Part shown: one piece after another, positions 1-14,147 of the stretch
Numbering within the stretch: the stretch's first letter is position 1
Layout of the letters: each line of letters opens with the position of its first letter
Source: an uncultured Actinomycetes bacterium
GTDB taxonomy: Bacteria > Actinomycetota > Thermoleophilia > RBG-16-64-13
Assembly (NCBI GenBank): GCA_963747275.1
Contig: CAVVEI010000012.1
Coordinates: forward strand, 19,066-83,065
Length of the DNA stretch: 64,000 nucleotides
Direction of reading: 5' to 3'
Position numbers and translations under genes: made by a program
The notes under the pieces: generated by a model
Database searches by the model: none
What the model saw: only the letters and a program-made list of their open reading frames with translations
Told to the model about the DNA's origin: nothing

Positions 1-735
1 GCCGGCGATGGGGCGTGACGGCGCCGTCATGCTGTTGCGCCGGCGGCCGCAGCCCACAGCCGTGTCGAAGGCGCAGCGCGCGGCGTAGCGGGACGGGCTT
101 GTCTTTGCTCTGCAGGAGTACGGCAGTGGCCAGGGGCTCGGAGAGCACGGCGTTCTGCACCTGGCCGGCCAGCAGGAGTTGCGAGGCCTCGGTGGGGTCG
201 GCGGCGTAGCGCAGCTGGAAGTCGGTGGCAGGATCCAGGCCTTCCTGGGCGGCCAGGTACTGGAACATCACGTCGGGCACGCTGCCCTGGAACGAGACCA
301 CCAGCGACTGGCCCTTGATGTCGGTGAAGCTGGCCGCGTCGGGGTCGCTGGTGATGAGATAGGTGATGTTCCACACCGAGATGTCGAGCAGACGGAGCTT
401 GATGCCCTTGTTGTAGAAGGTGGCGGCGTTGTTGCTGGGCACGGTGACGAAGTCGCCGTCGCCCCCGCCCAGGATGGCCTTGAGCTGGTCGGCGTTCTCC
501 CAGATGACCACCTCGGTGGAGGCGGCCACGTCGGCCAGCTTGTCGTTGGCCGCAAGGTAGGCCATGGGGATGGCCATGGGCCCCGGGGGCGCCACCAGGG
601 TGAGCTTGTCCAGCTTGACGGGGCGGTCGAGGTGGTCTCGGTGGACGATCCGCATCCGGCCACCGCGAGCAGGGAGGCGATCACGGCGACGAGCGCGCTC
701 ATAACGGCCAGGGTCTTGATCAGCTTGTTAGACAT
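1..735 (-). pseudogene. ABC-transporter substrate-binding lipoprotein (NMT1/TauA-like); C-terminus runs off window; frame broken as assembled
   Basis: ATG at 735 is preceded by GGAG. Lipoprotein signal MSNKLIKTLAVMSALVAVIASLLAVAGCGSS. The mature domain (VKLDKLTLVAPPGPMAIPMAYLAANDKL..FYNKGIKLRLLDISVWN..AGQVQNAVLSEPLAT) continues in another frame after the G-run at 620-623. The frame of the last ~100 nt is unclear. Confidence 0.6.
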
Positions 736-787
736 CGCTCCATATACCTTTCCTTGGGCGCCTCGGCGAACGCGCGTCGCGTGAACG

Positions 788-1036
788 TCAGCCGGAGAAG
801 TCCATGCGCTGCACGACAACGCCATCGATAGCCTTGAGTTCTTTGAAGAAGTCTTCGGTCTCGGCGCCAAAGGCGTCGACGATCAGCAGCCCGCTGGGCG
901 AGCAGCTGGTGCTGTCGGCATCGTGGAGTCCCAGACGGGTGCGGATGTTGCAGCCGTACTTGCTGAGAACCGCCTGCACTGCCGGCACGTTGTCCACTCG
1001 CTTGGTGATGTGTACGCCGAAGATGGTGTGCTGCAT
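788..1036 (-). CDS. small ACT/NikR-C-like protein, candidate TM1266-family iron-only-hydrogenase system regulator
   Basis: 82-aa ORF with SD GGAGGAGG just upstream of ATG 1036, divergent from rex. The pattern TIFGVHITKRVDNVPAVQAVLSKYGCNIRTRLGL..GLLIVDAFG recalls the TM1266 family that co-occurs with [FeFe]-hydrogenase genes. This recognition is from memory only. Confidence 0.5.
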   Translation of the reverse strand: MQHTIFGVHITKRVDNVPAVQAVLSKYGCNIRTRLGLHDADSTSCSPSGLLIVDAFGAETEDFFKELKAIDGVVVQRMDFSG

Positions 1037-1092
1037 GATGCCTCCTCCACTTCTGAAGCGCGTTTGCTCACCTATCTACCCGCCATTCTACA

Positions 1093-1154
1093 TTGACCTT
1101 GCTACCCCAAAGTAGTAGATTGTGAAACGCGTAACGGTGTTACATCTGTAACAA
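1093..1154 (+). promoter_or_regulatory. candidate sigma70-type promoter plus Rex-box-like operator upstream of rex
   Basis: TTGACC (1093-1098), 17 nt, TAGATT (1116-1121). This is followed directly by TGTGAAACGCG, a half match to the actinobacterial ROP consensus TGTGAACGCGTTCACA. Overlapping palindromes GTAAC-ggt-GTTAC and GTTACA-tc-TGTAAC lie at 1131-1152. Confidence 0.35.
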
Positions 1155-1203
1155 CTAGTTATCCACCTAACCATTTCGTCCGAAGGGACGCGTGCGAACC
1201 TAG

Positions 1204-2319
1204 GTGACCCCGGCAAGTAGACCGGCTGTCTCGCGCAAGACGGTAGGCAGGCTCAGCCTCTACCGTCGGCTCTTGGACGACCTCAGGGCCTCGGGCACCG
1301 CCAACATCTACTCCCATCAAGTCGCCCACCTCGCCGGAGTCAGCGCCGCCCAGGTGCGCCGGGACTTCATGGTCATAGGCTACTCGGGCAGTCCCAACCG
1401 CGGCTACGAGGTCGACACTTGCCTGGCCAGCATCGAGAGCCTTCTCGATGGCAGCATGCGCCAAGACGTGGCTCTGGTGGGTATGGGCCGCTTGGGCCAG
1501 TCACTGCTGGCGCACTTCGCGGGCAAGCGCCCACAGCTTCGCATCGCGGTGAGCTTCGACACCGACCCTCACTTGATAGGCACCTCGTTCGAGGGCTGCC
1601 CCGTGCACAGCGTGGCCGACATGGAGAGAGTGGTGGCCAAGAAGGGCATCCGCATAGCCATCATCGCCGTGCCTGCCCAGATGGGGCAAGAGGTGGCCGA
1701 CGGCTTGGTGCGGGCCGGCGTGCGCAGCATCGTCGACTTCACCGGTATCCCCCTGCGCGTGCCTGACGACGTGTGGGTGGACCACATGGACATCACCTCG
1801 GCCTTGGAGTCGGCCGCCTTCTTCGCCCGGCCGGAACAGACGTACGGCGACGCCGACGAGAACGGCAACGGCGAGAACGGTGACGAAGCCAACAGCGCAC
1901 CGGCCATGTATCCCATCATCCAGACCATCGACTCACTCCTGGCGGCGGCCAACATGAAACTGCAAGAACTTGCCCAGAAGATCGGCGCGGTGGTGCTCAC
2001 CACCGGCGATGCGGGCGAGCGCATGGTGACCAAGATCTACGCGGGCGACCGGGTGAGCGATCTGCTCAACGAGGCCTCCGACCAGACCCTGCTGGTCACC
2101 AACCTGGTGAACCTGCAGATGGTCCGCATGGCCGAGCTCATGGAGGTACCCGGCATCTGCTTCGTCGACGGCATAGATCCGGGCAGCGAAGTGATAGAGC
2201 TCGCCAACAAGAACGGCACCCTGCTGATGGTGTCACCACTGGGGGTCTTCGAGACCTGCGGCCTCATCTACCACCTGCTCGCCCGCGAGAGCCAAGAGGC
2301 CAAGGAACAGGGAGCGTAG
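1204..2319 (+). CDS. rex: redox-sensing repressor Rex fused to a C-terminal DRTGG-type domain
   Basis: N-terminal ~215 aa are Rex-like: RLSLYRRLL, SHQVAHLAGVSAAQVRRDF, Rossmann VALVGMGRLGQSL, IAIIAVPA. After an acidic Gly/Asn linker, the C-terminal ~110 aa (IYAGDRVSDLLNEASDQTLLVTNLVNLQMVRMA..GTLLMVSPLGVFETCGLIYHLL) are paralogous to the stand-alone DRTGG protein at 4017-4420. Confidence 0.85.
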   Translation: MTPASRPAVSRKTVGRLSLYRRLLDDLRASGTANIYSHQVAHLAGVSAAQVRRDFMVIGYSGSPNRGYEVDTCLASIESLLDGSMRQDVALVGMGRLGQSLLAHFAGKRPQLRIAVSFDTDPHLIGTSFEGCPVHSVADMERVVAKKGIRIAIIAVPAQMGQEVADGLVRAGVRSIVDFTGIPLRVPDDVWVDHMDITSALESAAFFARPEQTYGDADENGNGENGDEANSAPAMYPIIQTIDSLLAAANMKLQELAQKIGAVVLTTGDAGERMVTKIYAGDRVSDLLNEASDQTLLVTNLVNLQMVRMAELMEVPGICFVDGIDPGSEVIELANKNGTLLMVSPLGVFETCGLIYHLLARESQEAKEQGA

Positions 2320-2326
2320 GCGGCTC

Positions 2327-4017
2327 ATGGAGTTCGTGTCGTACGACATAGCCAGCATGGACTTCCGCCAAGGCGGGGCTGCTTCGCGCGCGCTCAAGGA
2401 GCGGCTGAAGCTCATCGGCGCCGACGCCGAGGCCATCCGCCGCACCATGATCGCCGCGTATGAGGCCGAGATGAACGTGGTCATACACTCGCTGGGTGGC
2501 CGCTGGAGGCCTCGCTCAGCGACTCGCAGGTAGATGTGGATGTGGTCGACTCGGGCCCCGGCATACCCGACATCGAGCGGGCCATGGTGCAGGGCTTCTC
2601 CACCGCGGGCGCCGAGGCACGCGCCTTGGGGTTCGGCGCGGGGATGGGCCTGCCCAACATCAAGAAGAACAGCGACCGGCTGCGCGTGACCTCCCGGATG
2701 GGTGAGGGCACCAGGTTGAGCTTCACCGTCTACCTGAAGCCCGGTGCGAGCGACGGGACACACCCCATCTCACTGTATGCCTCCGCCGACCGCTGCCGCG
2801 AATGCCGCGCCTGTTTGGCCGCGTGTCCCACCAAGGCCATGCGGGTGCGTGACGGCCGCCCCAGCGTTCTCGAGCACCTTTGCGTGGACTGCGCCGAGTG
2901 CATCGCCGCCTGTCCCTTCGAGGCCCTGGGCGTGCGCCAAGAAGTCGCGTCGCTGGATGAACTCACAGGCAAGAGCGACATGGTGCTCATGGTGCCCCCC
3001 GCGCTCCTCGCGGGGTGCGGCCCCGACTATCCGCCCGCAGCTGTCTGGGCTGCCCTTGAGGATCTGGGTTTCGCCCAAGTGGTCACCTCTGAGCCCTACG
3101 AACAAGCGTTGCGCGCGGCTACGACGGCCTTCGCGGGCCACCCCGGCGACGCCGACCCCGCGTCGAGGCGCACGCCCGCGATCTCGCCCTCCTGCCCGGC
3201 CGCGGTCGAGCTGATGCAGCTCCGCTTCCCCTCGCTGGTGCACTACCTGGCGCCGTTCGACTCACCCTGGGAAGCCGCAGCAGCAGCCCACGACGGCCGC
3301 TCTCTGGCCTGCGTCGTCTCCTGCCCCAGCCAGCGTTCGGCGCTGCTGGCGGCCCGCGCGGCTCTGCGGACGGCACAGCCCATGCGGAGGGCGCGCAGAT
3401 CCGCGACGAGTACCTGGCGCCTGAGGTGGTCCGCCAAGCCGTCATGGCCAAGCTGACACGAGCCGGCGCACGGGGCGCGGGCGCCCGACCCACCGACGGC
3501 GCCGGCGCCACCCGCAAGGCCGACGTGCCCCTTGTCGCGACCGACGCCGGCACGCTGGTGGTCACCGGCGCCGCGCACGTGCTCGCCGTGCTTGAAGAAG
3601 TCGAGGATGGGCTACTCACCGACGTCGATGTGATCGAACTCTATTTGTGTGAGGGCGGATGCTTCGGTTCGCCCCTGCTCTCCGAGGACCACCATGTGGC
3701 GGCGCGCCGCTGGGCCCAGGGCCGCGCCGCTCTCGAAGCCGCCGCGGAGTACCGGGCGGCCGCGCGGCGCCGCTGACGCGGCGCCGCGGCGCCGGCCGTA
3801 CGCCGCGCGGCCCGGCATCCGGCTCGATGCCGACATGGGCCGCGCCATCGAGAAGCTCGGCCGTCTGCAGGCCGTGGTCGACTCACTGCCCGGCAAGGAC
3901 TGCGGCGCCTGCGGGGCGCCCACCTGCGCCGCCTTGGCCGAGGACGTCGTCATGCAACGGGGCACCACCGGCCTGTGCCCGTATCTGAAGCCCGGCAAGA
4001 AGGAGGGTCGCGCCTGA
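2327..4017 (+). pseudogene. HATPase (anti-sigma-kinase-like) / 2x[4Fe-4S] ferredoxin / [FeFe]-hydrogenase H-domain-like / C-terminal FeS-domain protein; at least 3 frameshifts as assembled
   Basis: Homology runs through the ORF pieces 2327-2533, 2536-3456, 3426-3776 and 3649-4017. Motifs in order: AAYEAEMNVVIHSLGG|LEASLSDSQVDVDVVDSGPGIPDIE..GFGAGMGLPN; CRECRACLAACP and CVDCAECIAACP; ISPSCPAAVELMQLRFPSL; VVSCPSQ; ELYLCEGGCFGSP; LPGKDCGACGAPTCAALAEDV. Frame changes lie near 2506, 3340-3400 and 3700-3790. Confidence 0.7.
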
Positions 4018-4420
4018 TGAGACTTCGTGAACTGGCCAGCGTACTAGGACTCACAGAGTTGACGCCCGGCGGCACCGACTCCGGGCCTGCCGCGGCTCCC
4101 GGGCCGCTGCAGGCTCCGACGCCGCAGCGGCAGGTGACCCCGACATCACCAAAGCCTACGCCTCCGACCTGCTCTCCGACGTGCTGGCCAACGCGCCCGC
4201 CGGTGGAGTGCTGGTCACCCTGCAGGTGCACCTCAACGTCATCGCCGTCGCCGGCCATGCCGGGCTGGCCGCGGTCGTCTTCTCTTCGGGCCGCAAGCCC
4301 GAGGACGACGTCATCGCCAGGGCGGCCGAGGAGGGCCTGGCCCTCTTCGGCTCGCCGGCCGACACCTTCGACCTGGCGGGTCGCCTGTATGAGTTGGGCA
4401 TCAGGGGGAGCGGCGCTTGA
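4017..4420 (+). pseudogene. DRTGG domain protein (one frameshift as assembled)
   Basis: ATG 4017 overlaps the upstream TGA (TGATG), with SD AAGGAGGG. The N-terminus MRLRELASVLGLTELTPGG is in one frame. DITKAYASDLLSDVLANAPAGGVLVTLQVHLNVIAVAGHAGLAAVVFSSGRKPEDDVIARAAEEGLALFGSP..GRLYELG is in another. The switch is near 4075-4110. Confidence 0.75.
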
Positions 4421-4450
4421 CCGCACCGGCCGAACACGCCTGACCGCCCC

Positions 4451-5200
4451 CTGCGGTCGTACCGGGCCGATCTGCACATCCACACGGCCCTCTCGCCCTG
4501 CGCGTCAGACGAGATGACGCCGCCCGCCATCGTGGCGGCGGCGGCCAAGGCCGGCCTGGACGTCATAGCCATCTCTGACCACAACACAGCGGGCAACGTG
4601 GCCGCGGTGCAGGAGGCGGCCAAGGCCGCGGGCAACGGGCTGACCGTGCTGCCGGGCATGGAGATAACCAGCGCCGAAGAGGCCCACGTGCTCGGGGTGT
4701 TCCCCGACCTGCAGGCCGCCGAGGGCGCCGCGGCCGAGTTGCGTACCATGCTGCCCCGGGCCGATTCCGACTACTACGCCTTCTTCGGCGAGCAGCCGCT
4801 GCTGACGGCGGCGGGGTGCCAGGCGGGGGCCGAGACTGCCGCGCTGGCGGGTGCCTCGCCCTTGGACCTCACCTCCACCGTGGAGTTCATCCACCGGCTG
4901 GGCGGGCTGGCCATAGCCGCCCATGTGGACCGCAAAGCGTTCAGCGTCTACTCGCAGTTGGGCTTCTTCCCCCAAGAGGCCGGCTTCGACGGCGTGGAGG
5001 TCTCGCGCCACGTGTCCACAGACTCCCCGCGCCTGGAGGAGTACTCGGCCTTGGGGCTGCCGCTCATAGGCTGCTCCGACAGCCACTACCTGGAAGAGAT
5101 AGGCACGGCGACCACCGAGCTTCACCTCGCCGGGCCGGAGTTCTCTGAGCTGGCCCTGGCCCTTGCCGGAGCCGAGGGTAGGAGCGTGGCCCGTGCATGA
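4451..5200 (+). CDS. PHP-domain (polymerase/histidinol-phosphatase-like) metal-dependent phosphoesterase; start codon unresolved
   Basis: The motif YRADLHIHTALSPCASDEM lies upstream of the first ATG (4514). It is followed by GLDVIAISDHNT, GMEITSAEEAHVLG, AHVDR and GCSDSH. The frame opens right after the DRTGG stop (4418-4420) and has no ATG/GTG/TTG before 4514, only CTG at 4451. Confidence 0.75.
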   Translation: MRSYRADLHIHTALSPCASDEMTPPAIVAAAAKAGLDVIAISDHNTAGNVAAVQEAAKAAGNGLTVLPGMEITSAEEAHVLGVFPDLQAAEGAAAELRTMLPRADSDYYAFFGEQPLLTAAGCQAGAETAALAGASPLDLTSTVEFIHRLGGLAIAAHVDRKAFSVYSQLGFFPQEAGFDGVEVSRHVSTDSPRLEEYSALGLPLIGCSDSHYLEEIGTATTELHLAGPEFSELALALAGAEGRSVARA

Positions 5201-5681
5201 CCTATCTCTATATCTTCTCGAGTTGCTCGAGAACTCCATCCGCGCCGGCGCGCAGCAGGTGGAGATAGGCCTGCTCATGGACGAACAGGCCAACGAACTG
5301 CGCCTCACGGTGGATGACGACGGACAGGGCCTGAGCGCCTCACCTGATCGCGTCCTGGACCCCTTCTTCACCACCAAGGCCGACAAGAAGACCGGCTTGG
5401 GCCTCAGCCTGCTGAAGGCCGACGCCCAAGCGGCCGGGGGCGATCTGCTGATAGGTGCGTCGCCGACCCTGGGCGGCACCCGGGTCGAGACCCACATGGA
5501 CTTAGACCATGTCGATCGGATACCGGTCGGCGACATGGGCAGCACCATCACCGTGACCGCCTTCACCAACCCCGAGGTCCAGTTCGTGGTGGACCTCACC
5601 GGAGACCAGTTCTCCCCGCCGCTGCTGCGGGCCTCGCCCGCCGCCGCAGCCGAGAGGCTGGCTAAGGAGGCGGCGGCGTGA
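5193..5681 (+). CDS. histidine-kinase-like ATPase-only protein (HATPase_c)
   Basis: GTG 5193 overlaps the PHP stop (GTGCATGA), with GGAG upstream. Motifs: LLELLENSIRAGA (N-box), DDDGQGL (G1), FFTTK..GLGLSLL (G2). No HisKA or sensor domain is present. Confidence 0.75.
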   Translation: MHDLSLYLLELLENSIRAGAQQVEIGLLMDEQANELRLTVDDDGQGLSASPDRVLDPFFTTKADKKTGLGLSLLKADAQAAGGDLLIGASPTLGGTRVETHMDLDHVDRIPVGDMGSTITVTAFTNPEVQFVVDLTGDQFSPPLLRASPAAAAERLAKEAAA

Positions 5682-5734
5682 GCGAGGGTATACGTGGAGC
5701 GCCGGGTATGGAACCAACCGACAAGGAGTCGTGA

Positions 5735-6283
5735 ATGACCGCGGATAGTAAGGCAAAGAGCAGTACCTGCCAGGGCTGCGAGGAGGCCTCAGAGCAGGAA
5801 CTCCTTGCGCGCCTCGATGAAGTGCTCGAGCGCTACAAGGTGAGTCCCGGAGGACTCATCCCGGTCCTGCAACAGGCCCAGGGCATCTTCGGTTATCTGC
5901 CCGAGGTTGCCCTCAAGCGCATCGCCAAGGGTCTCTCTAAGTCGTACAGCGAGGTGGCCGGAGTGGTGAGCTTCTACTCCTTCTTCTCCACCGTACCTCG
6001 CGGCAAGCACATCATAAGAGTCTGCCTGGGTACCGCCTGCTACGTGCGCGGCGGCCTCGCGGTGCTGGACGCCGTTCGCGAGAAGCTGGGCATCGACGTG
6101 GGCGAGACCACCGAAGACCGGCAGTTCTCGCTCGAGGTGGCGCGCTGCTTCGGAGCCTGCGGTCTCGCTCCGGCTGTCTCTATAGACGAAGACGTCCACC
6201 GGCGCGTGCGCGCATCCCAGGTGGGACAGATACTTGCCCGCTACTACGAACAGGAAGAGGTGGCCCAGAATGTCGCCAGTTGA
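5735..6283 (+). CDS. hydC: NuoE-like [2Fe-2S] subunit of NAD(P)H-linked [FeFe]-hydrogenase (HydC/gamma type)
   Basis: SD AAGGAG. Motifs: LIPVLQQAQGIFGYLP, SFYSFF, IIRVCLGTACYVRG, ARCFGACGLAPAV. The four Cys match the 24-kDa-subunit fold. Confidence 0.85.
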   Translation: MTADSKAKSSTCQGCEEASEQELLARLDEVLERYKVSPGGLIPVLQQAQGIFGYLPEVALKRIAKGLSKSYSEVAGVVSFYSFFSTVPRGKHIIRVCLGTACYVRGGLAVLDAVREKLGIDVGETTEDRQFSLEVARCFGACGLAPAVSIDEDVHRRVRASQVGQILARYYEQEEVAQNVAS

Positions 6284-6674
6284 GGGGTCCGGTGCCGGCA
6301 AGATAAAGAGCCCTGCCGACCTGCTTGCCATAAAGGAGCGGACGCAGCGTGAGAACGCCCTGCGCGAGGACGGCTATCACGTCCTGGCCACCGTGCACAT
6401 GGGCACTTGCGGCATCGCAAGTGGTTCGCGCGAGGTCCTCTCGACCATGATCGCCGAACTCTCGGCCTCTGGACGCCTGGACGTGCGGGTCGCGACTTCG
6501 GGCTGCATAGGAGCCTGCGAGCACGAACCGGTGATGACGGTCGAGACTCTGGAGAAGGCCAAGGTGGTCTACGGCGACTTGGACGCCGAGAAGGCCAGAG
6601 AGATCTGGCGAGAGCACATCATGGACGGCAGACACGTGCCCAAGTACGTGGTCAGCTACGGAAGCGAGGCCTGA
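6270..6674 (+). CDS. thioredoxin-like [2Fe-2S] ferredoxin (HydD-like)
   Basis: ATG 6270 follows GAAGAGGTGG. Motifs VHMGTCGIASGS and SGCIGACEHEPVMTV are typical of the small ferredoxin found in Thermoanaerobacter-type hyd clusters. Confidence 0.75.
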   Translation: MSPVEGSGAGKIKSPADLLAIKERTQRENALREDGYHVLATVHMGTCGIASGSREVLSTMIAELSASGRLDVRVATSGCIGACEHEPVMTVETLEKAKVVYGDLDAEKAREIWREHIMDGRHVPKYVVSYGSEA

Positions 6675-6678
6675 GTCG

Positions 6679-9600
6679 ATGAGCGACAACGGCAAGACAC
6701 CCCACATGCACATAATGATGTGCTTCGGCACCGCCTGCCTCTCCTCAGGTGCCGAGCACGTCAAGGCCGCCCTCGAGGAACAGCTTCACCTCCAGGACGC
6801 GGACGCCGAGGTCGGCGTGATCGAGACAGGCTGTAACGGCTTCTGCGCCGGTGGCCCGCTCATGGTCATCTACCCCGGCGGCGTGTTCTACAACAAGGTC
6901 ACACCCGAGGACACTGCCGAGATCGTGGCCGAGCACGTGCTCAAAGGCCGTCCGGTGGAGAGGCTCATGTACGAGCACCCCACCACCAAGGCCCGCATAC
7001 CCCTGTTCAAAGACATCCCCTTCTTCGCCCGCCAGAACCTGCGCGTGCTGCGCAACAAGGGACGCATAGCGGCTGAAGAGATCGACGAGTACATAGCCAA
7101 CGACGGCTATGCCGGGCTGGCCAAGGCCCTCACCGAGATGACGCCCGAGGACATAGTCGAAGAGATCATGATGAGCGGCCTGCGCGGCCGCGGGGGCGCG
7201 GGCTTTCCCACCGGCCTCAAGTGGGAGTTCGCCTCCAAGGCCAAGGGCGACCAGAAGTACATACTCTGCAACGCCGACGAGGGCGACCCCGGGGCGTTCA
7301 TGGACCGCAGCATCCTGGAGAGCGACCCGCACGCGGTGCTCGAGGGCATGATGATCGGTGCGCGGGCCATCGGGGCCACCAAGGGCTACATCTACTGCCG
7401 GGCCGAGTATCCGCTGGCGCTGGAGCGCCTGGGCGTGGCCATCGCCGCCCTGCGTGAGTACGGCCTTCTCGGCAAGGGCATCCTGGGCACCGACTTCGAC
7501 TTCGACATCGAGATAGCCCAAGGCTCGGGCGCCTTCGTCTGCGGCGAGGAGACGGCGCTCATGACCTCCATCGAGGGCAAGCGCGGCGAGCCGCGCCCGC
7601 GGCCCCCGTTCCCGGCGCAGAAGGGTCTGTGGGGTCAGCCCTCGGTGCTCAACAACGTCGAGACGTTGGCCACCGTGCCCTCCATCATCAGGCTGGGGGC
7701 CGCATGGTTCCGCACCGCCGGCACTGAGAAGAGCCCTGGCACCAAGATCTTCGCCCTCTCGGGCAAGGTCAACAACGTCGGTCTGGTCGAAGTCGACATG
7801 GGTATCCCCCTGGGCGACATAATCTACGAAATAGCCGGGGGCATCCCGGGCGGCAAGCAGTTCAAGGCCGTGCAGTTGGGTGGTCCGTCTGGTGGCTCCA
7901 TTCCCCGTCAGCACTTGAACGTGCCGGTGGACTACGAGTCGGTGCAAGAGCTGGGCGCCATCATGGGCTCCGGCGGACTCATCGTCATGGACGAGGACAG
8001 CTGCATGGTCGACATGTCCCGCTTCTTCTTGGAGTTCACCCAAGAGGAGAGCTGCGGCAAGTGCGTGCCCTGCCGCGTGGGCACCAAGCGCATGCTCGAG
8101 ATCGTCACCCGCATCTGCAACGGCCAGGGCGAAGAGGGCGACATAGAGAAGCTCGAGGAGCTGGGCAAGGTGATCAAAGACACCGCCCTCTGCGGCCTCG
8201 GCCAGACCGCCCCCAACCCGGTGCTGGCCAACATCCGCTACTTCCGCAAGGAGTTCGAGGCAGCACATCCGCGACCATCGCTGCGAGGCGGGCGTCTGCT
8301 CGAGCATGTTCGTGGCCAAGTGCACCAACGCCTGCCCGGCGTCGGTGAACGTGCCCGGCTTCGTCAGCCTCATCGGCGAGAAGCGCTTCGACGAGGCCCT
8401 CCGCCTGCACCGCGAGCGCAACCCGCTGGCCAGCATCTGCGGCCGCGTCTGCTTCCATCCGTGCGAAAGCAAGTGCCAGCGCGGCACCATGGACGACCCG
8501 GTGGCTATCCGCGGTCTCAAGCGCTTCATGACCGAGCAGGAGAAGAAGCTGCAGGTTCCTGAGGTCCGCAAGAGCGCCGCAAACGCCGAGAAGAAGATCG
8601 CCATCATCGGCGGCGGTCCGGCCGGCCTCTCCTGCGCCTACTTCCTGGCGCGGCTGGGTTACGAGCCCACCATCTTCGAGCGCGAAGACCACGCCGGCGG
8701 CATGTTGGTGCAGGCCATCCCCTCGTACCGCCTGCCGCGCGAAGAGCTGGACCGCGAGATCAAGATGATCCAGGACCTGGGCGTGACCATAGAGACCGGC
8801 AAGGCTCTGGGCCGCGACTTCACCCTGGCCAGCCTCCGCAACCAGGGCTATCACGCCGCCTTCTTGGGCGTCGGCGCCCCCAAGGGCGTCGGCCTGGGAC
8901 TCTCCAAAGAAGAGGGCTCTGAGGCCGGCGAAGGCGTGGTCGATGCGCTCACCTTCTTGCGTGAGTACAACGTCAGCGGCAATCCCGCCGTGGGTCAAGA
9001 GGTCGCCGTGGTCGGCGGGGGCAACTCCGCTATCGACGCCGCCCGTACCGCCCTCCGCTTGGGCGCCAAGCACGTGAACATCATCTACCGCCGCCAGCGC
9101 GAGCAGATGCCCGCCTGGACCGAAGAGATACTGGCTGCCGACGAGGAGGGCATCACCCTGCTCACCCTGACGGCTCCCGAGACCATCAGACGCGACTCTT
9201 CCGGCAAGGTGGCCGGCATACTGTGTCAGAAGATGGTGCTGGGTGACTACGACTCGAGCGGCCGGCGCCGTCCGGTGCCGGGCCGCGACCCTCACTTCAT
9301 AGTGCCGTGCGACCAGGTGATAGCCGCCATCGGCCAGGCCCCCGAGCCGCGGATGCTCACCGGCGACCTACCCGTCGAGATGGATAACGGCTGGCTCAAG
9401 GCCGACGAGCGCACCGGCTCCACCAACCTGGACTGGGTGTTTGCCGGCGGCGACGCCGTCACCGGCCCGGCCTCGGTGGTCGAGGCCGTGGGCGCCGGCG
9501 AGCGCGCCGCGGTCTCCATTGACAAGTACCTCACCGGCGAAGAGCACGCCTTCTGGCGACGCGACCTCGCTGTGGACACCTTCTTCGACCCCGATGCCGA

Positions 9601-9811
9601 CCCGACCGAAACCCCCCGTGCCGCGGTCGTCTGCTTGGACGCCGAAGCCCGCGCGTGCACCTTCGACGAGGTCGAGCTGTCGTGGGACCTGCAGACTGCC
9701 TGCGCCGAAGCCAAGCGCTGTCTGCGCTGCGACTACGGCAAGATCCCCGCCGAGCCTGAGCTGGTGGGCGTCGCGGCAGCCGACTCTGATACACAAGGAG
9801 ACGTGGAGTAA
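6679..9811 (+). pseudogene. NuoF-like flavoprotein (HydB/beta type) fused to a GltD/NfnB-like FAD/NAD(P)H oxidoreductase module; one frameshift as assembled
   Basis: N-terminal Trx-like 2Fe-2S (MMCFGTACLSSG, ETGCNGFCAGGP). NuoF core: GRGGAGFPTGLKW, ILCNADEGDPGAF, ESCGKCVPCRVG, LCGLGQ. After ...YFRKEFEA the frame slips near 8261-8266. It continues HIRDHRCEAGVCSSMFVAKCTNACPA..ICGRVCFHPCESKCQRG..KIAIIGGGPAGLSCAYFL..VAVVGGGNSAIDAART..VFAGGD. Confidence 0.8.
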
Positions 9812-11583
9812 TGCCAAGCCTGACTGTAGATGGAATGAAGGTGGAAGTGCCTGAGAGCGCCAGCGTCCTGCAGGCCTGCCGCCAAGCCGGCGCCAAGGTG
9901 CCCACCCTGTGTCACCTGGAGGGCCATCCGGCCATCGGCGCCTGCCGCCTCTGCCTGGTGGAGTTGGAGGGCGCCCGCTCCCTGGTCGCCTCTTGCACCC
10001 AACCAGCCACCGACGGCATGGTGGTGCACACCAACACCCCGCGCGCGCGCCGCGCGCGCCACGCCGTGCTGGAGCTCATACTCTCCGAGCACGATGGTGA
10101 CTGCTACGCGTGCGTGCGCAGCGGTGACTGCGAACTGCGACAGTTGGCCCTCGACCTACATGTGGTCGAGATCAGCTATGAGGGCGAACGCACCCGCAAG
10201 ATGATCGACGAATCCACGCCCGCGCTGGTGCGCGACACCGGCAAGTGCGTCAGCTGCCGCCGTTGCGTGACCGCCTGCAACGAGATCCAGGGCGTGGGTG
10301 CCCTGTTCGCGCAGGGGCGCGGCTTCACCACAGTCATAGGCCCGGCCTTCGCCAGCAACTTGAGCGACGTGGTCTGCGTTCAATGCGGCCAATGCGCCGC
10401 CGTGTGCCCGGTGGGAGCCATCACCGAGAACAACGCCGTCGACCTGGCCTGGGCAGCCCTGGACGACCCCGCCAAGCATGTCATAGTGCAGACCGCGCCC
10501 GCCATCCGCGGCGCGCTGGGAGAGGAGTTCGGCTACGAGCCCGGTACCCTGGTCACCGGCAAGATGGTCTCGGCCTTGCGGCGTCTCGGGTTCGACGCCG
10601 TGTTCGACACCAACTTCACCGCCGACCTAACCATCATGGAAGAGGGCACCGAGCTGCTCACCCGCCTCAAGAAGGCTCTGGTGGACGGCGAGCAGGTGGC
10701 CCTGCCCATGTTCACCAGCTGCTCCCCGGGTTGGGTCAACTACATGGAGCACTTCAACCCCGACATGCTCCCTAACCTCTCCACCTGCAAGTCGCCCCAA
10801 CAGATGTTAGGCGCGCTGGCCAAGACCTACTACGCCGAGAAGCTGGGCAAGAAGCCTGAGGACATCGTGGTGGTCTCGGTGATGCCCTGCACCGCCAAGA
10901 AGTACGAGTGCGCCCGAGTGGAGATGGGCCGGGGCGGCGTAGCCGACGTCGACATGGTGCTCACCACCCGAGAGCTGGCGCGCATGATCAAGATGGCCGG
11001 CATAGACTTCCAGAACCTGCCCCCGCAGAAGATGGACCGCCCGCTGGGCATGTCCACCGGCGCGGCAGACATCTTTGCCGTCACCGGTGGAGTGATGGAG
11101 GCGGCGCTCCGCACCGCCTACGAGATAGTCACCGGCGAGGCCTTCCCCTTCGTCAACCTTCACGTGGCCCCCATCGAGGGGCTGCAGGGCGTCAAAGAAG
11201 CTTCGGTCAAGATCGAGAAGACCCTACCCGAGTGGAGCTTTCTCAAGGGCGCCACGCTCAACGTGGCCGTGGCCCACGGGTTGGGCAACGCCCAGAAGGT
11301 CATCGACCGCATAAAGAGCGGTGAGGCCACCTACCATTTCGTCGAAGTCATGACCTGCCCCGGCGGATGCATCGGTGGCGGCGGCCAGCCGCGCCTGACC
11401 TCCGACGCGGTGCGCGAGGCGCGCATACGAGCCATCTATGCCGAGGACGAGGGGCGCGAGCTACGCAAGTCGCACGAGAACCCCGACGTCAAAGCCTTGT
11501 ACGAGGAGTTCTTGGGTGAGCCTTTGGGGCACAAGTCTCACGAACTCTTGCACACCAAGTACGTGGAGAAAGACCGGGTCTAG
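9811..11583 (+). CDS. hydA: [FeFe]-hydrogenase catalytic subunit, multi-cluster (M3-type) HydA
   Basis: ATG overlaps the upstream TAA (TAATG), with SD AAGGAG. N-terminal 2Fe-2S (CHLEGHPAIGACRLC), His-ligated cluster region, CVSCRRCVTAC and CVQCGQCAAVCP. H-cluster motifs: L1 FTSCSPGW (non-canonical), L2 VMPCTAKKYE, L3 EVMTCPGGCIGGGGQP. C-terminal small-subunit-like tail. Confidence 0.9.
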   Translation: MPSLTVDGMKVEVPESASVLQACRQAGAKVPTLCHLEGHPAIGACRLCLVELEGARSLVASCTQPATDGMVVHTNTPRARRARHAVLELILSEHDGDCYACVRSGDCELRQLALDLHVVEISYEGERTRKMIDESTPALVRDTGKCVSCRRCVTACNEIQGVGALFAQGRGFTTVIGPAFASNLSDVVCVQCGQCAAVCPVGAITENNAVDLAWAALDDPAKHVIVQTAPAIRGALGEEFGYEPGTLVTGKMVSALRRLGFDAVFDTNFTADLTIMEEGTELLTRLKKALVDGEQVALPMFTSCSPGWVNYMEHFNPDMLPNLSTCKSPQQMLGALAKTYYAEKLGKKPEDIVVVSVMPCTAKKYECARVEMGRGGVADVDMVLTTRELARMIKMAGIDFQNLPPQKMDRPLGMSTGAADIFAVTGGVMEAALRTAYEIVTGEAFPFVNLHVAPIEGLQGVKEASVKIEKTLPEWSFLKGATLNVAVAHGLGNAQKVIDRIKSGEATYHFVEVMTCPGGCIGGGGQPRLTSDAVREARIRAIYAEDEGRELRKSHENPDVKALYEEFLGEPLGHKSHELLHTKYVEKDRV

Positions 11584-11634
11584 TATTGTGAGAAGACCTA
11601 GGCGTAAACCGGGCACACCGACAGTGGGGGCGTC

Positions 11635-12126
11635 ATGACCGACGACATGTCCGCGCTGATCCTGATAGTCGACGACGACTACGACTTTCTGGAGCTCAAC
11701 CGTATGGTGCTCGAGCGGGCAGGCTATCGCGTCACTACGGCAGCCGAACCCAAGCAGGCCCTCCTGCTCATGCAGCAGGAGCGGCCCGACCTGGTGATCA
11801 CCGACCTCATGATGACCACCCTTGATTCGGGCTTCTTGTTCGCGCGCGCCATCAAGGAGGACGAGCGCTACGCCGGAATACCCGTGATCATAGCCACCTC
11901 GGTCTCCAGCGCGCTCGGCCTGGACTTCAGACCCCGCACCGACGAAGACCGCGCCAACATGTTCGTGGACGCTTACTTTGACAAGCCGCTGGACCGGGCG
12001 CGGCTGCTGGCCACGGTCGCGGAGTTGCTCACGGCCTCGGGGCGCGCGGCCGCGCCGGGCAGCTCCGAAGCCGCCGCGCCGCGCGAAGCGCCGGCCGGCC
12101 CCGGCCGAGAGGCGCCGGAGGACTGA
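11635..12126 (+). CDS. stand-alone response-regulator receiver domain (no output domain)
   Basis: LILIVDDDYD, phospho-acceptor context DLVITDLMM, IIATSVSS, YFDKP. Ala/Pro-rich tail. The stop overlaps the start of the sensor kinase. Confidence 0.85.
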   Translation: MTDDMSALILIVDDDYDFLELNRMVLERAGYRVTTAAEPKQALLLMQQERPDLVITDLMMTTLDSGFLFARAIKEDERYAGIPVIIATSVSSALGLDFRPRTDEDRANMFVDAYFDKPLDRARLLATVAELLTASGRAAAPGSSEAAAPREAPAGPGREAPED

Positions 12127-14147
12127 TGCCCACCTGGGACAACCCCCTCATCACCATAGTCACCGACAAATGCCGCATGTGCTACGCCTGCGTGCGTGAG
12201 TGCCCGGCCAAGGCGATACAGGTGCAAGACGGGCAGGCCCAGGTAGTACAACCCCGCTGCATAGGCTGCGGCAACTGTCTGCGAGTGTGCACCCAGAACG
12301 CCAAACAGGTGCGCGACGACTCCGAGCGCATGTTCAACATCCTGGAGTCGGGCGCCAAGGTGGCCGCGCTGGTGGCACCCAGCTTTCCGGCTGAGTTCGA
12401 CGACGTCCGCCCAGGCACCCTGGTGGCCATGATCCGGTCGCTGGGGTTCGATTCGGTGCACGAGATATCGCTGGGCGCCGACCTGGTGGCTCAGGCCTAC
12501 AAGAAGCTTCTGGACGAGGACCCCGACGGCCGTTACATCGCCACTCCCTGCCCGGCGGTGGTCTCTTACGTGCGCAAGTATCATCCGCGACTGATCCCTA
12601 ACCTCGCCCCGCTGGTGTCGCCCATGGTCGCCATGGCGCGCGTGTTGCGGAGCGAGGTGGGCGAAGACCTGCAGGTGGTCTTCATAGGCCCCTGCGTGGC
12701 CAAGAAGCGGGCGTCTGTGGACTTCATCCATCACGAGTTCGAGGCGGTCCTCACCTTCGCCGAGCTGCGCGAGGTCTTCGCCGCCCGCGGCATGAAGCCT
12801 GAGGACTTTGCCGGTGACGACGACTTCGACCCTCCGTACGGTGGGCTCGGCATGGTCTTTCCGATCTCCGGAGGCCTGCTGCAGGCCGCCGACCTGAAGC
12901 AGGACCACCTCAGCGGTGATCTGGTCATCGCCGAAGGCAGAGACGAGTTCGTCTCCTCCATAAACGAGTTCGACGACGTGCGCACCGGCATCAGGCTGCT
13001 TGACGTGCTCGCCTGCCAAGGCTGCTATGCGGGGGCAGGTATGACCAGCGACGCGTCCCTGTTACAGCGCCGAGCGCTGGTCAGCGGCTACGCCAAGGAT
13101 AGGCTGGCAGACTACAGCGAAGCCGAGCTGGCCGAGGTGAACGGGGCGAGAGACAAGTACCGCAATATCGACATGTCGCGCGAGCACGAGCCAGACGAGC
13201 AGACGCTGGGGGGCGAGCCCACGCCCGAAGAACTGGACGAGATCTTGCAGCGCATGGGCAAGTCCAGACGCGAACACCTGCTCAACTGCGGCGCCTGCGG
13301 CTATGAGGGCTGTTTAGAGCATGCCCGCGCGGTCTATGCCGGACTTGCCGACTCAGAGATGTGTCTGCCACACTCCATCGAGCAGCTCCGCCAGGCCTAC
13401 GGCGAACTCGCAATCTCGCACCGCTCGCTCGAAGAGGCCAAAGAAGCCCTCGAGCGCTCGGGCAAACTGGCCAGCATGGGCCAACTGGCGGCCGGCATAG
13501 CCCACGAGGTCAACAACCCGCTGGGCACGCTGCTCTTACACGCCAACCTGCTGCTGGAGGAGTGCGACGAAAGCTCCGCCGACAAAGAAGACCTGGCGAC
13601 CATCGTCGACCAGGCCAACCGCTGCAAACGCATAATCTCCGGCCTGCTCAACTTCTCCCGCCAGAGCCGGGTACTCCGCCAACCCACCGACGTAGCCGAG
13701 CTGGTGGAGCGTACCATCCGCACCACCCCCTTCGCCGACAACGTCAAGGTCGTACTCGACAACAAGCTCGCCGACCCAGTCGCCGACCTCGACCCCGACC
13801 AGATGGTGCAGGTGTTCACCAACCTCTTCACCAACGCTCAGCAGGCCATGCCCGACGGGGGCACGCTTGCCATAGACTTGAGCGACGACCCCGCCACGGT
13901 CACCATCAAGGTCACCGATACCGGCGTGGGCATAGCGCCCGAACACATGCCCAACCTGTTCGACCCGTTCTTCAGCACCAAACCGCTGGGCATGGGCACC
14001 GGGTTGGGTCTCGCCGTGACCCACGGCATCGTCAAGATGCACAAGGGACACATAGTCGCTGAGTCCAACCACGACCCCGCTGCCGGCCCCACCTGGACCG
14101 CCCTCACCGTGACACTGCCGCGGCGCGAAGAGAAGGAGGGCGTCTAG
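12126..14147 (+). CDS. sensory [FeFe]-hydrogenase-like domain fused to histidine kinase (HydS-type sensor::HisKA-HATPase)
   Basis: CRMCYACVRECP and CIGCGNCLRVC. H-domain-like core: ATPCPAVVSYVRKYHP (degenerate L1), FIGPCVAKKRA (L2), LDVLACQGCYAG (L3). C-terminal Cys motif NCGACGYEGCLEHA..MCLP. Then SMGQLAAGIAHEVNNPL (H-box) and N/G1/G2 boxes (FTNAQQAM, DTGVGI, GTGLGLAV). Confidence 0.85.
   Translation: MPTWDNPLITIVTDKCRMCYACVRECPAKAIQVQDGQAQVVQPRCIGCGNCLRVCTQNAKQVRDDSERMFNILESGAKVAALVAPSFPAEFDDVRPGTLVAMIRSLGFDSVHEISLGADLVAQAYKKLLDEDPDGRYIATPCPAVVSYVRKYHPRLIPNLAPLVSPMVAMARVLRSEVGEDLQVVFIGPCVAKKRASVDFIHHEFEAVLTFAELREVFAARGMKPEDFAGDDDFDPPYGGLGMVFPISGGLLQAADLKQDHLSGDLVIAEGRDEFVSSINEFDDVRTGIRLLDVLACQGCYAGAGMTSDASLLQRRALVSGYAKDRLADYSEAELAEVNGARDKYRNIDMSREHEPDEQTLGGEPTPEELDEILQRMGKSRREHLLNCGACGYEGCLEHARAVYAGLADSEMCLPHSIEQLRQAYGELAISHRSLEEAKEALERSGKLASMGQLAAGIAHEVNNPLGTLLLHANLLLEECDESSADKEDLATIVDQANRCKRIISGLLNFSRQSRVLRQPTDVAELVERTIRTTPFADNVKVVLDNKLADPVADLDPDQMVQVFTNLFTNAQQAMPDGGTLAIDLSDDPATVTIKVTDTGVGIAPEHMPNLFDPFFSTKPLGMGTGLGLAVTHGIVKMHKGHIVAESNHDPAAGPTWTALTVTLPRREEKEGV

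Follow-up and report, generated by a model that had tools for sequence, protein, structure and literature searches.

Control of hydrogenase genes by the repressor Rex is already known: in Caldicellulosiruptor bescii, Rex represses the [FeFe]-hydrogenase genes and also its own gene, as seen by electrophoretic mobility shift assay (PMC6391272). For the group D (M2e) [FeFe] hydrogenases, TamHydS among them, which are thought to be H2 sensors and yet have no PAS domain, the signalling route and the partners are stated to be unknown (PMC8163306; PMC13104023). Beside these enzymes, upstream of NADH-linked hydrogenases, stand small genes for DRTGG, PHP and HATPase proteins, to which no function has so far been assigned. 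Here we analyse a stretch of 64,000 nucleotides (the window; G+C content 64.6%) from contig CAVVEI010000012.1 of assembly GCA_963747275.1, an uncultured Actinomycetes bacterium placed in the Thermoleophilia, in which a gene for Rex continues, in one open reading frame (ORF), into a C-terminal domain of the DRTGG fold and stands first in a string of cassette and hydrogenase genes. We found no paper in the searchable literature linking Rex to a DRTGG domain in such a manner, and a Rex of this kind is not described there; the single paper in which both terms occur uses them in unrelated contexts.

A complete Rex repressor with a conserved extension

As judged from profile matches, the ORF at positions 1204-2319 encodes a full Rex, with its winged helix, its NAD(H)-binding Rossmann domain and its swapped C-terminal helix. 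Residues 7-211 are assigned to Rex by NCBIfam NF003995 (PRK05472; 187.6 bits against a cut-off of 126), the winged helix (residues 9-55) matches Pfam Put_DNA-bind_N PF06971 (49.5 bits; cut-off 27) and the Rossmann domain (residues 88-180) matches CoA_binding PF02629 (57.8 bits); a search for these two Pfam domains had been proposed in an initial annotation of this DNA, made from the letters alone. The core aligns end to end, up to about residue 209, with the solved Rex structures 2VT2 (E 3.3e-34), 3KEO and 3IKT, the last of which we take to be the T. aquaticus DNA complex, with E values from 3e-34 to 2e-27. The alignments with 2VT2 and 3KEO stop near the C-termini of those chains, and some 160 residues of the fusion protein are therefore extra. 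The recognition helix reads AAQVRRD and is paired in the alignment with SATIRRD of 2VT2, and G93, G95, G98, D119 and the C-terminal helix MDITSxLE are invariant in an alignment of 26 orthologues; nothing in these residues suggests that the sensing of NAD(H) has been lost. The fusion is the only copy of Rex that was found in its genome (2.08 Mb, 80.6% complete).

The extension begins with an acidic linker that differs in length and sequence among orthologues and is disordered, with a predicted local distance difference test score (pLDDT) below 50 over residues 211-238 of the full-length AlphaFold2 (AF2) model. It continues with a conserved helix and a terminal domain, the latter being more conserved than the linker. 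The initial annotation had described a Rex core followed by an acidic linker and a domain of about 110 residues, and this layout is borne out by the NCBIfam and Pfam matches, the alignments and the AF2 model.

A protein search listed at least 120 clusters of such fusions (307-409 aa, coverage 82-100%, identity 63-90%), which, where they are named, are called only "Rex" and for which the databases do not record the DRTGG domain. In a scan of one genome per species, 102 stretches held a relative of the query, and the 80 that were examined bring the fusion as a single ORF to at least 80 species-level genomes, assembled with SPAdes, with MEGAHIT or from long reads. Almost all of the carriers at these 80 loci are labelled Thermoleophilia, Gaiellales or Actinomycetota. 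Among 401 sampled Actinomycetota genomes, three have the fusion: the genome analysed here, a second from its family and a third from its class. Invariant residues are distributed over both halves of the protein, and the gene itself has no frame change in the window's assembly. Because the ORF recurs without interruption in over 100 clusters and in no fewer than 80 species, from independent assemblies, the fusion is confirmed as genuine and not an artefact of assembly; the database search for a Rex-DRTGG architecture that had been suggested at the outset has thus returned more than 100 clusters and at least 80 species-level metagenome-assembled genomes (MAGs).

Two side observations concern this distribution. 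A 5.4-kb contig with the fusion (JBLMXT010000113.1) is binned in a MAG labelled Deltaproteobacteria, whereas every other carrier has an actinobacterial label of one rank or another, so that this is probably a binning error, and one database protein (P0128, 339 aa) joins the DRTGG-1 part of a Rex fusion to EAL-like sequence and probably comes from a chimeric contig.

The tail has a DRTGG fold and belongs to a cassette protein family

Against Pfam DRTGG PF07085, the window's domain scores 18.6 bits within the whole protein and 21.6 bits alone, in a match that spans positions 1-103 of the 105 of the profile; the gathering score of 25.2 is not reached. The C-termini of the orthologues match DRTGG in 20 cases out of 20 (best E 4.4e-6), and the sole region of the PDB matched by a profile of the Rex C-termini is the DRTGG region of a CBS-pyrophosphatase (3L2B). 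With the AF2 model of the domain (pLDDT 87.8) as query, ranks 1-5 of a Foldseek search are taken by 3L2B, 3L31 and 2IOJ (E 1e-6 to 3e-5, probability 1.0), with an E value of 1e-6 for 3L2B and 3L31 and a target-normalised template modelling score of 0.78 for 2IOJ, followed by the N-domain of HPr kinase. It is because of these orthologue matches, the PDB profile match and the Foldseek result that we regard the assignment of the tail to the DRTGG fold, made by profile and by model, as settled despite the low Pfam score. The initial annotation had staked its claim on a significant DRTGG profile match: in this respect the window's own copy falls short, yet its orthologues, the PDB profile and the fold confirm the domain.

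The same annotation had also called the tail a paralogue of the stand-alone DRTGG protein encoded at 4017-4420. The homology stands, with 35% identity over 94 aa by BLASTP (E 8e-15) and, between the Rex-tail profile and the family of the stand-alone protein (DRTGG-2), an hhalign probability of 98.8% (E 1.4e-16, 110 columns); a DRTGG-2 orthologue passes the Pfam DRTGG threshold with 30.0 bits against 25.2. The origin of the tail has to be refined. Searched against 1.84 billion representative proteins, the Rex C-terminal profile retrieved fragments of fusion proteins together with a large family of unfused proteins, some 117 aa in length (up to 151 bits), which we call DRTGG-1, a group defined in the present analysis and not a curated family. 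These proteins align from their own Met1, share the motifs YAGDRxSDLL, TLLVTNL, VPxICL and FETCGRLY, and start aligning at column 19 of the profile, i.e. without the helix of residues 235-250; the methionine at residue 251 corresponds to the former DRTGG-1 start codon. In a maximum-likelihood tree, the Rex C-termini and free DRTGG-1 split from DRTGG-2, drawn from Thermoleophilia and from metagenome loci, with support of 100/100 on both sides. By sequence, then, the tail is the orthologue of DRTGG-1, a free protein in other phyla, and not a copy of DRTGG-2, and since it lies in the DRTGG-1 lineage, it was the opening gene of the cassette that became fused to rex. A recent duplication of the window's stand-alone DRTGG gene as the source of the tail is ruled out by the tree. 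No free DRTGG-1 was found in the genome itself. The conserved single ORF and this orthology uphold the claim made from the start that an NADH/NAD+-sensing Rex is physically joined to a domain of the hydrogenase module.

The surroundings of free DRTGG-1 were assessed at 80 metagenome loci, whose neighbouring genes were labelled by comparison with the proteins of the window. Of these loci, 45 exceed 4 kb, and in about 35 of them the gene immediately downstream of free DRTGG-1 is the HATPase-Fer4-hydrogenase-like one; contigs of sufficient length continue as DRTGG-1, HATPase-Fer4-hydrogenase-like, DRTGG-2, PHP (in most), HATPase, NuoE, ferredoxin and NuoF. In other phyla DRTGG-1 is thus a free gene at the head of a conserved cassette of five genes ahead of NADH-linked [FeFe]-hydrogenase operons, in which the SpoIIAB-like ATPase is either fused to the hydrogenase-like Fe-S sensor or succeeded by it. 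Rex was never found beside free DRTGG-1 at these loci, and the intermediate state, an unfused rex adjoining free DRTGG-1, appeared neither there nor in the 401 Actinomycetota genomes.

Where an upstream neighbour of free DRTGG-1 was recognised in other phyla, it was often a sigma-54-dependent (NtrC-type) response regulator, and the same cassette may be paired with different transcription factors in different lineages. Another actinobacterial lineage (G182:C1:116000-131000) has an unfused cassette with a shorter sensor gene of about 310 aa; this cassette is flanked by NuoF and a HydA-like gene, and Rex is absent from its vicinity.

Three residues of the domain deserve mention. C319 (2158-2160) and C352 (2257-2259) are both invariant in the Rex-fused domain, one of the two is invariant and the other nearly so in free DRTGG-1, and neither is present in DRTGG-2. 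A thiol switch is one possible role for the pair, a metal or Fe-S site another. In the DRTGG-1 and the DRTGG-2 families alike, S285 is invariant.

A conserved promoter and a candidate operator

The sigma-70-type promoter proposed in the initial annotation, TTGACC-17-TAGATT, is the sole sigma-70-like match in positions 700-12200. Shuffled sequences give a mean of 0.8, and as one match is expected by chance, its significance rests on conservation: the same promoter, with a Rex-box-like 18-mer (box 1) at the -10 hexamer, recurs at 78 of the 80 orthologous loci, which with the window makes 79/81 in all, and wherever the promoter is recognisable the last two bases of the -10 hexamer are the first two of the 18-mer.

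Measured against the Rex consensus TTGTGAANNNNTTCACAA (TTGTGAA-N4-TTCACAA, an 18-bp inverted repeat; PMC6391272), box 1 in the window's own group has four mismatches, all of them in the right half, and a canonical left half. All 27 loci of its clade, like the window itself, have TTGTGAA in this place, and other loci of the wider clade have 2-6 mismatches. Deeper clades have TTGTGAATCGATTCACAG or CTGTGAATCACTTCACAA at the position of box 1, each with one mismatch, or a further version, TCGTGACAGATTTCACAG, with three; the recognition helix QVRRD is identical across all clades. The half Rex operator (ROP) consensus that had been noticed just after the -10 hexamer is thus joined by full canonical boxes in the deeper clades.

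A second element of overlapping inverted repeats follows box 1, and the GTTACA-tc-TGTAAC palindromes pointed out at first lie within it, at 1138-1153. In nearly every orthologous promoter, inverted repeats centred on CGTT/AACG come after box 1, and they vary between clades in a compensatory manner (GTAACG-G-CGTTAC, GGAACG-C-CGTTCC, GTTCGTT-CTGT-AACGAAC and CGTTAC|GTAACG). The window's TGTTACA-TC-TGTAACA resembles the clostridial Rex box TTGTTAA-N4-TTAACAA (PMC5886521); the versions of the deeper clades do not.

The composite operator is unique in the 2.08-Mb genome, which holds no second copy of any of its sub-motifs except for two isolated TAAC-N3-GTTA palindromes, at G000:C12:132272 and G000:C14:133257 (TAACAGCGTTA and TAACCCCGTTA). 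A genome-wide Rex regulon was sought as well; with no further Rex-like site found in the genome, none could be defined beyond the hydrogenase operon. From its sites, the fusion Rex looks like a dedicated regulator of its own operon. A known RNA element in the rex leader was ruled out, there being no Rfam match in the leader and no significant fold (z -1.77).

Gene neighbourhood

The features of the locus are collected in Table 1. The divergent placement of the CPF_0552-family gene is kept in all three relatives with long contigs, and it may therefore use the same operator as rex. Downstream, the HATPase/HydS-like gene starts 7 nt after the rex stop, and its intact orthologues encode 561-604 aa. 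The N-terminus of its product matches HATPase_c_2 with 27.9 and 34 bits, just over the cut-off of 27.4, and the anti-sigma F factor model spIIAB with 42.5 bits, far under that model's cut-off of 135. The joining of a SpoIIAB-like ATPase to a hydrogenase-like sensor is a second fusion within the cassette. Its cluster motif Cx2Cx4Cx16C has been described for the putative sensory [FeFe] hydrogenases of groups C and D (PMC8163306), and by motif and domains we consider the sensor to be putatively group-D-like.

In the same three relatives the order is CPF_0552 (divergent), rex-DRTGG1, the HATPase-Fer4-Fe_hyd_lg_C-FeS protein, DRTGG-2 (115 aa), PHP, HATPase, the NuoE-like gene, the 2Fe-2S protein, the NuoF-GltD fusion, HydA, and a receiver with a HydS-type histidine kinase, and in about 70 of the 80 fetched loci DRTGG-2 lies some 2.7-3 kb downstream of the rex start. 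The genes that carry frame changes in the window are intact in these relatives; the five changes stem either from indel errors in a long-read assembly or from genuine decay.

Table 1. Features of the rex-DRTGG1 locus, with positions counted from the first letter of the window
Feature	Positions	Strand	Details
CPF_0552-family gene, 82 aa	788-1036	-	NF052672, 85.8 bits (cut-off 85); divergent from rex
Candidate sigma-70-type promoter of rex	1093-1121	+	TTGACC (1093-1098), 17-nt spacer, TAGATT (1116-1121)
Box 1, Rex-box-like 18-mer	1120-1137	+	TTGTGAAACGCGTAACGG, i.e. TTGTGAA-ACGC-GTAACGG; overlaps last 2 nt of the -10 hexamer
Second cis element	1131-1153	+	Overlapping inverted repeats GTAAC-GGT-GTTAC (1131-1143) and TGTTACA-TC-TGTAACA (1138-1153)
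rex-DRTGG1 fusion gene	1204-2319	+	Single ORF, GTG start, 371 aa
Rex core, residues 7-211	1222-1836	+	Winged helix 9-55; Rossmann fold 88-180 with G93-x-G95-x-x-G98 and D119; C-terminal helix MDITSALESAAFFA
Acidic low-complexity linker, residues 212-234	1837-1905	+	From orthologue alignment and AF2
Conserved helix, residues 235-250	1906-1953	+	MYPIIQTIDSLLAAAN; fusion-specific, absent from free DRTGG-1
DRTGG-1 domain, residues 251-360	1954-2283	+	Invariant YAGDRVSDLL (279-288), C319 and FETCG (349-353)
HATPase/HydS-like gene	2327-4017	+	SpoIIAB-like HATPase_c_2, 2x[4Fe-4S], hydrogenase H-domain-like region, Cx2Cx4Cx16C at 3901-3978
Frame changes in HATPase/HydS-like gene (three)	2482-2503, 3333-3375, 3722-3748		
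Stand-alone DRTGG-2 gene	4017-4420	+	Paralogue compared in the initial annotation; one frame change
Frame change in DRTGG-2	4086-4138		
PHP phosphoesterase	4445-5197	+	Extent matched by orthologue
Bare HATPase_c protein	5163-5681	+	
Hydrogenase structural genes	5735-11583	+	NuoE-like, 2Fe-2S ferredoxin-like, NuoF-GltD fusion, HydA
Frame change in NuoF-GltD	8262-8264		

A proposed mechanism and its alternatives

The reading that we favour, and hold to be reasonably likely, is that the fusion Rex represses its own operon under the control of NADH and that the DRTGG-1 domain couples it to the cassette. By strong analogy with characterised Rex proteins, the fusion would bind the operator at its own promoter when the NADH/NAD+ ratio is low, repressing itself together with the cassette and hydrogenase genes, and NADH would release it from the DNA. 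Repression probably extends over the gene string as far as hydA, since a single promoter-like site and the tight spacing of the genes point to shared control from rex to hydA; between 1204 and 11583 there is neither a further promoter-like site nor a convincing terminator. More tentatively, the DRTGG-1 domain may be a docking or acceptor surface for the SpoIIAB-like ATPase/sensory-hydrogenase-like protein, for DRTGG-2 or for both, in which case the repressor would merge NADH with a second signal from the cassette, either H2 or an Fe-S redox state. Its most likely partner would be the SpoIIAB-like ATPase domain of the next gene's product; homotypic contacts between DRTGG domains, as they occur in a CBS-pyrophosphatase (bioRxiv 10.1101/2020.04.07.028951), make DRTGG-2 another candidate. 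The coupling could proceed by binding, by phosphorylation, perhaps of the invariant S285, or through the lineage-specific C319 and C352, and the argument for it is drawn from the fusion and the gene order only.

Several points weigh against this reading. The Pfam score of the window's own domain is below the gathering threshold. The right half of box 1 is divergent, so that binding of Rex at this site is extrapolated from sister clades, and no canonical Rex box (two mismatches or fewer to the consensus) occurs anywhere in the 2.08-Mb, 80.6%-complete genome. In the full-length AF2 model (predicted template modelling score, pTM, 0.47) the two domains are independent, and no tie of the DRTGG domain to the neighbouring proteins is predicted. 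The neighbouring sensor is, by its motif and domains, a putative member of group D. Finally, the frame changes downstream of rex, at least five in number, would, if real, be a sign of decay of the system in this genome. The full-length model was also inspected for a fixed docking between the Rex and DRTGG halves but, with its low pTM and disordered linker, was uninformative.

Self-association offers one alternative, which we judge unlikely but worth stating: the DRTGG domain would join two Rex dimers and make them cooperative on a composite operator, with no input from the cassette. The homotypic contacts in the CBS-pyrophosphatase (bioRxiv 10.1101/2020.04.07.028951) fit such a role, as do the second inverted-repeat element found right after the Rex box in nearly all promoters of the fusion family and its resemblance, in the window, to a clostridial-type Rex box. 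In the deeper clades, however, the second element is unlike a Rex box, and the long disordered linker does not suggest the fixed geometry of a tetramer. Moreover, the orthologue of the domain is a free cassette protein encoded away from any Rex in other phyla, so that its ancestral role was related to the cassette.

Equally doubtful in our estimate, and broader in scope, is the possibility that the cassette forms an unrecognised partner-switching or phospho-relay system, composed of DRTGG-1 with the SpoIIAB-like ATPase and the group-D-like HydS, DRTGG-2, PHP and HATPase, with Rex as its output. DRTGG would then take the role of the STAS antagonist and PHP that of the PP2C phosphatase, and putative sensory group D [FeFe] hydrogenases would signal to transcription via DRTGG-1 and Rex.

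There is a small chance that the domain senses a small molecule, a nucleotide or another phosphorylated metabolite, with no protein partner. GDRxSD after strand 1, TN after strand 2, C319 in strand 3 and SP...FETCG after strand 4 of the predicted parallel sheet would occupy the usual ligand sites of Rossmann-like folds, a placement that follows the model. The DRTGG transcription factor SpxR is assumed to bind metabolites (PMC9888711), and CBS-pyrophosphatases that contain DRTGG respond to diadenosine polyphosphates while those without it do not (bioRxiv 10.1101/2020.04.07.028951). Yet no ligand is known for any DRTGG domain, and the strict gene-order link between DRTGG-1 and the SpoIIAB-like ATPase gene points to a protein partner.

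It is improbable, too, that the sequence following the -10 hexamer is not a Rex operator in the window's clade and serves another regulator or a leader RNA hairpin, the fusion then being no autoregulator or acting elsewhere. The right half of box 1 is degenerate, with its four mismatches, the GTAAC/GTTAC repeats are conserved by themselves, and the predicted leader can fold a hairpin over 1131-1160. However, the fold is not significant and has no Rfam match, TTGTGAA is kept in place in the window and 27 clade loci, full canonical boxes occupy the same position in deeper clades whose recognition helix is identical, and the cluster encodes no other DNA-binding regulator.

An artefactual fusion, in which a lost stop or an indel joined two genes, can practically be discarded: although the 8 kb downstream of the gene contain at least five frame changes in the window's assembly and the DRTGG part opens with a methionine matching the start of its free homologues, the spread over clusters, the orthologue alignment and the species scan rule it out, the ORF being uninterrupted in over 100 clusters and no fewer than 80 species assembled with SPAdes, MEGAHIT or long reads, with a conserved fusion-specific helix ahead of the domain and no leftover free DRTGG-1 gene in the genome.

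Implications

A lineage-wide fusion of a cassette protein to Rex nominates concrete partners and an output for the putative sensory hydrogenases, and the fusion of ATPase and sensor in the next gene likewise nominates partners, which turns the question into one of binding, phosphorylation and footprinting experiments. If autorepression coupled to the cassette is the correct reading, a hydrogenase that makes H2 from NADH and reduced ferredoxin would be controlled by a repressor sensing NADH directly and H2 or Fe-S redox state by way of the cassette. Should the partner-switching reading be the true one, Rex would be a dual sensor of NADH and H2, and the Thermoleophilia fusion would be a key to group D signalling. 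On a practical matter, database annotation labels these fusion proteins of 350-400 aa simply as Rex.

Comparison with known systems

SpoIIAA/SpoIIAB and RsbV/RsbW are partner-switching modules. The window resembles them, as a functional analogy only, in the succession of a small antagonist-like protein and a HATPase_c_2 kinase, with a phosphoesterase in the same cassette. The differences are that the small protein has a DRTGG and not a STAS fold, as seen for the Rex tail by Foldseek, so that the STAS antagonist that marks those modules, and that the kinase phosphorylates on a conserved serine, is missing here; that the candidate phosphatase is PHP and not PP2C; and that the cassette has no sigma factor, its output being, if anything, Rex.

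With the group D (M2e) cassette of TamHydS from Thermoanaerobacter mathranii (PMC8163306; PMC13104023), the gene next to rex shares two N-terminal [4Fe-4S] clusters, an H-domain-like region and a C-terminal Cx2Cx4Cx16C, as well as a place upstream of a NuoE/NuoF/HydA-type hydrogenase and beside a histidine-kinase-like ATPase. In the window, by contrast, sensor and ATPase form one fusion protein, and a Rex fused to DRTGG-1 serves as the regulator.

As for the domain itself, the DRTGG regions of the CBS-pyrophosphatase (3L2B/3L31) and of AF1212 (2IOJ) have the same fold and a GDR motif after strand 1. Identity to them is only 17-20%, the name-giving TGG has become VDG in the Rex tail, C319 and C352 are specific to the lineage of the tail, and the tail sits in a transcription factor. 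The only other DRTGG-bearing transcription factor that we found is SpxR of Streptococcus (helix-turn-helix, DRTGG, CBS pair and HotDog; PMC9888711), which differs in that its DNA-binding family, partner domains and biology are unrelated and its DRTGG has no link to a hydrogenase cassette.

With canonical Rex (B. subtilis 2VT2, S. agalactiae 3KEO, T. aquaticus 3IKT/1XCB and S. coelicolor) the fusion has in common the core of about 210 aa, GxGxxG, the acidic residue that ends strand 2, the recognition helix QVRRD and a TTGTGAA-type operator at its own promoter. It departs from them by the added 160 aa of acidic linker, conserved helix and DRTGG domain, by appearing to be a local regulator, and by the divergent right half of its operator in the window's clade. 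The Rex proteins of Caldicellulosiruptor bescii, other Firmicutes and Thermotogae (PMC6391272; PMC5886521) repress hydrogenase structural genes and autoregulate, as predicted for the fusion, through the operators TTGTGAANNNNTTCACAA or TTGTTAANNNNTTAACAA; in those bacteria an unfused rex of normal length lies at a distance from the hyd operon, whereas in the window rex opens the operon as its first cistron and is joined to a protein of the cassette.

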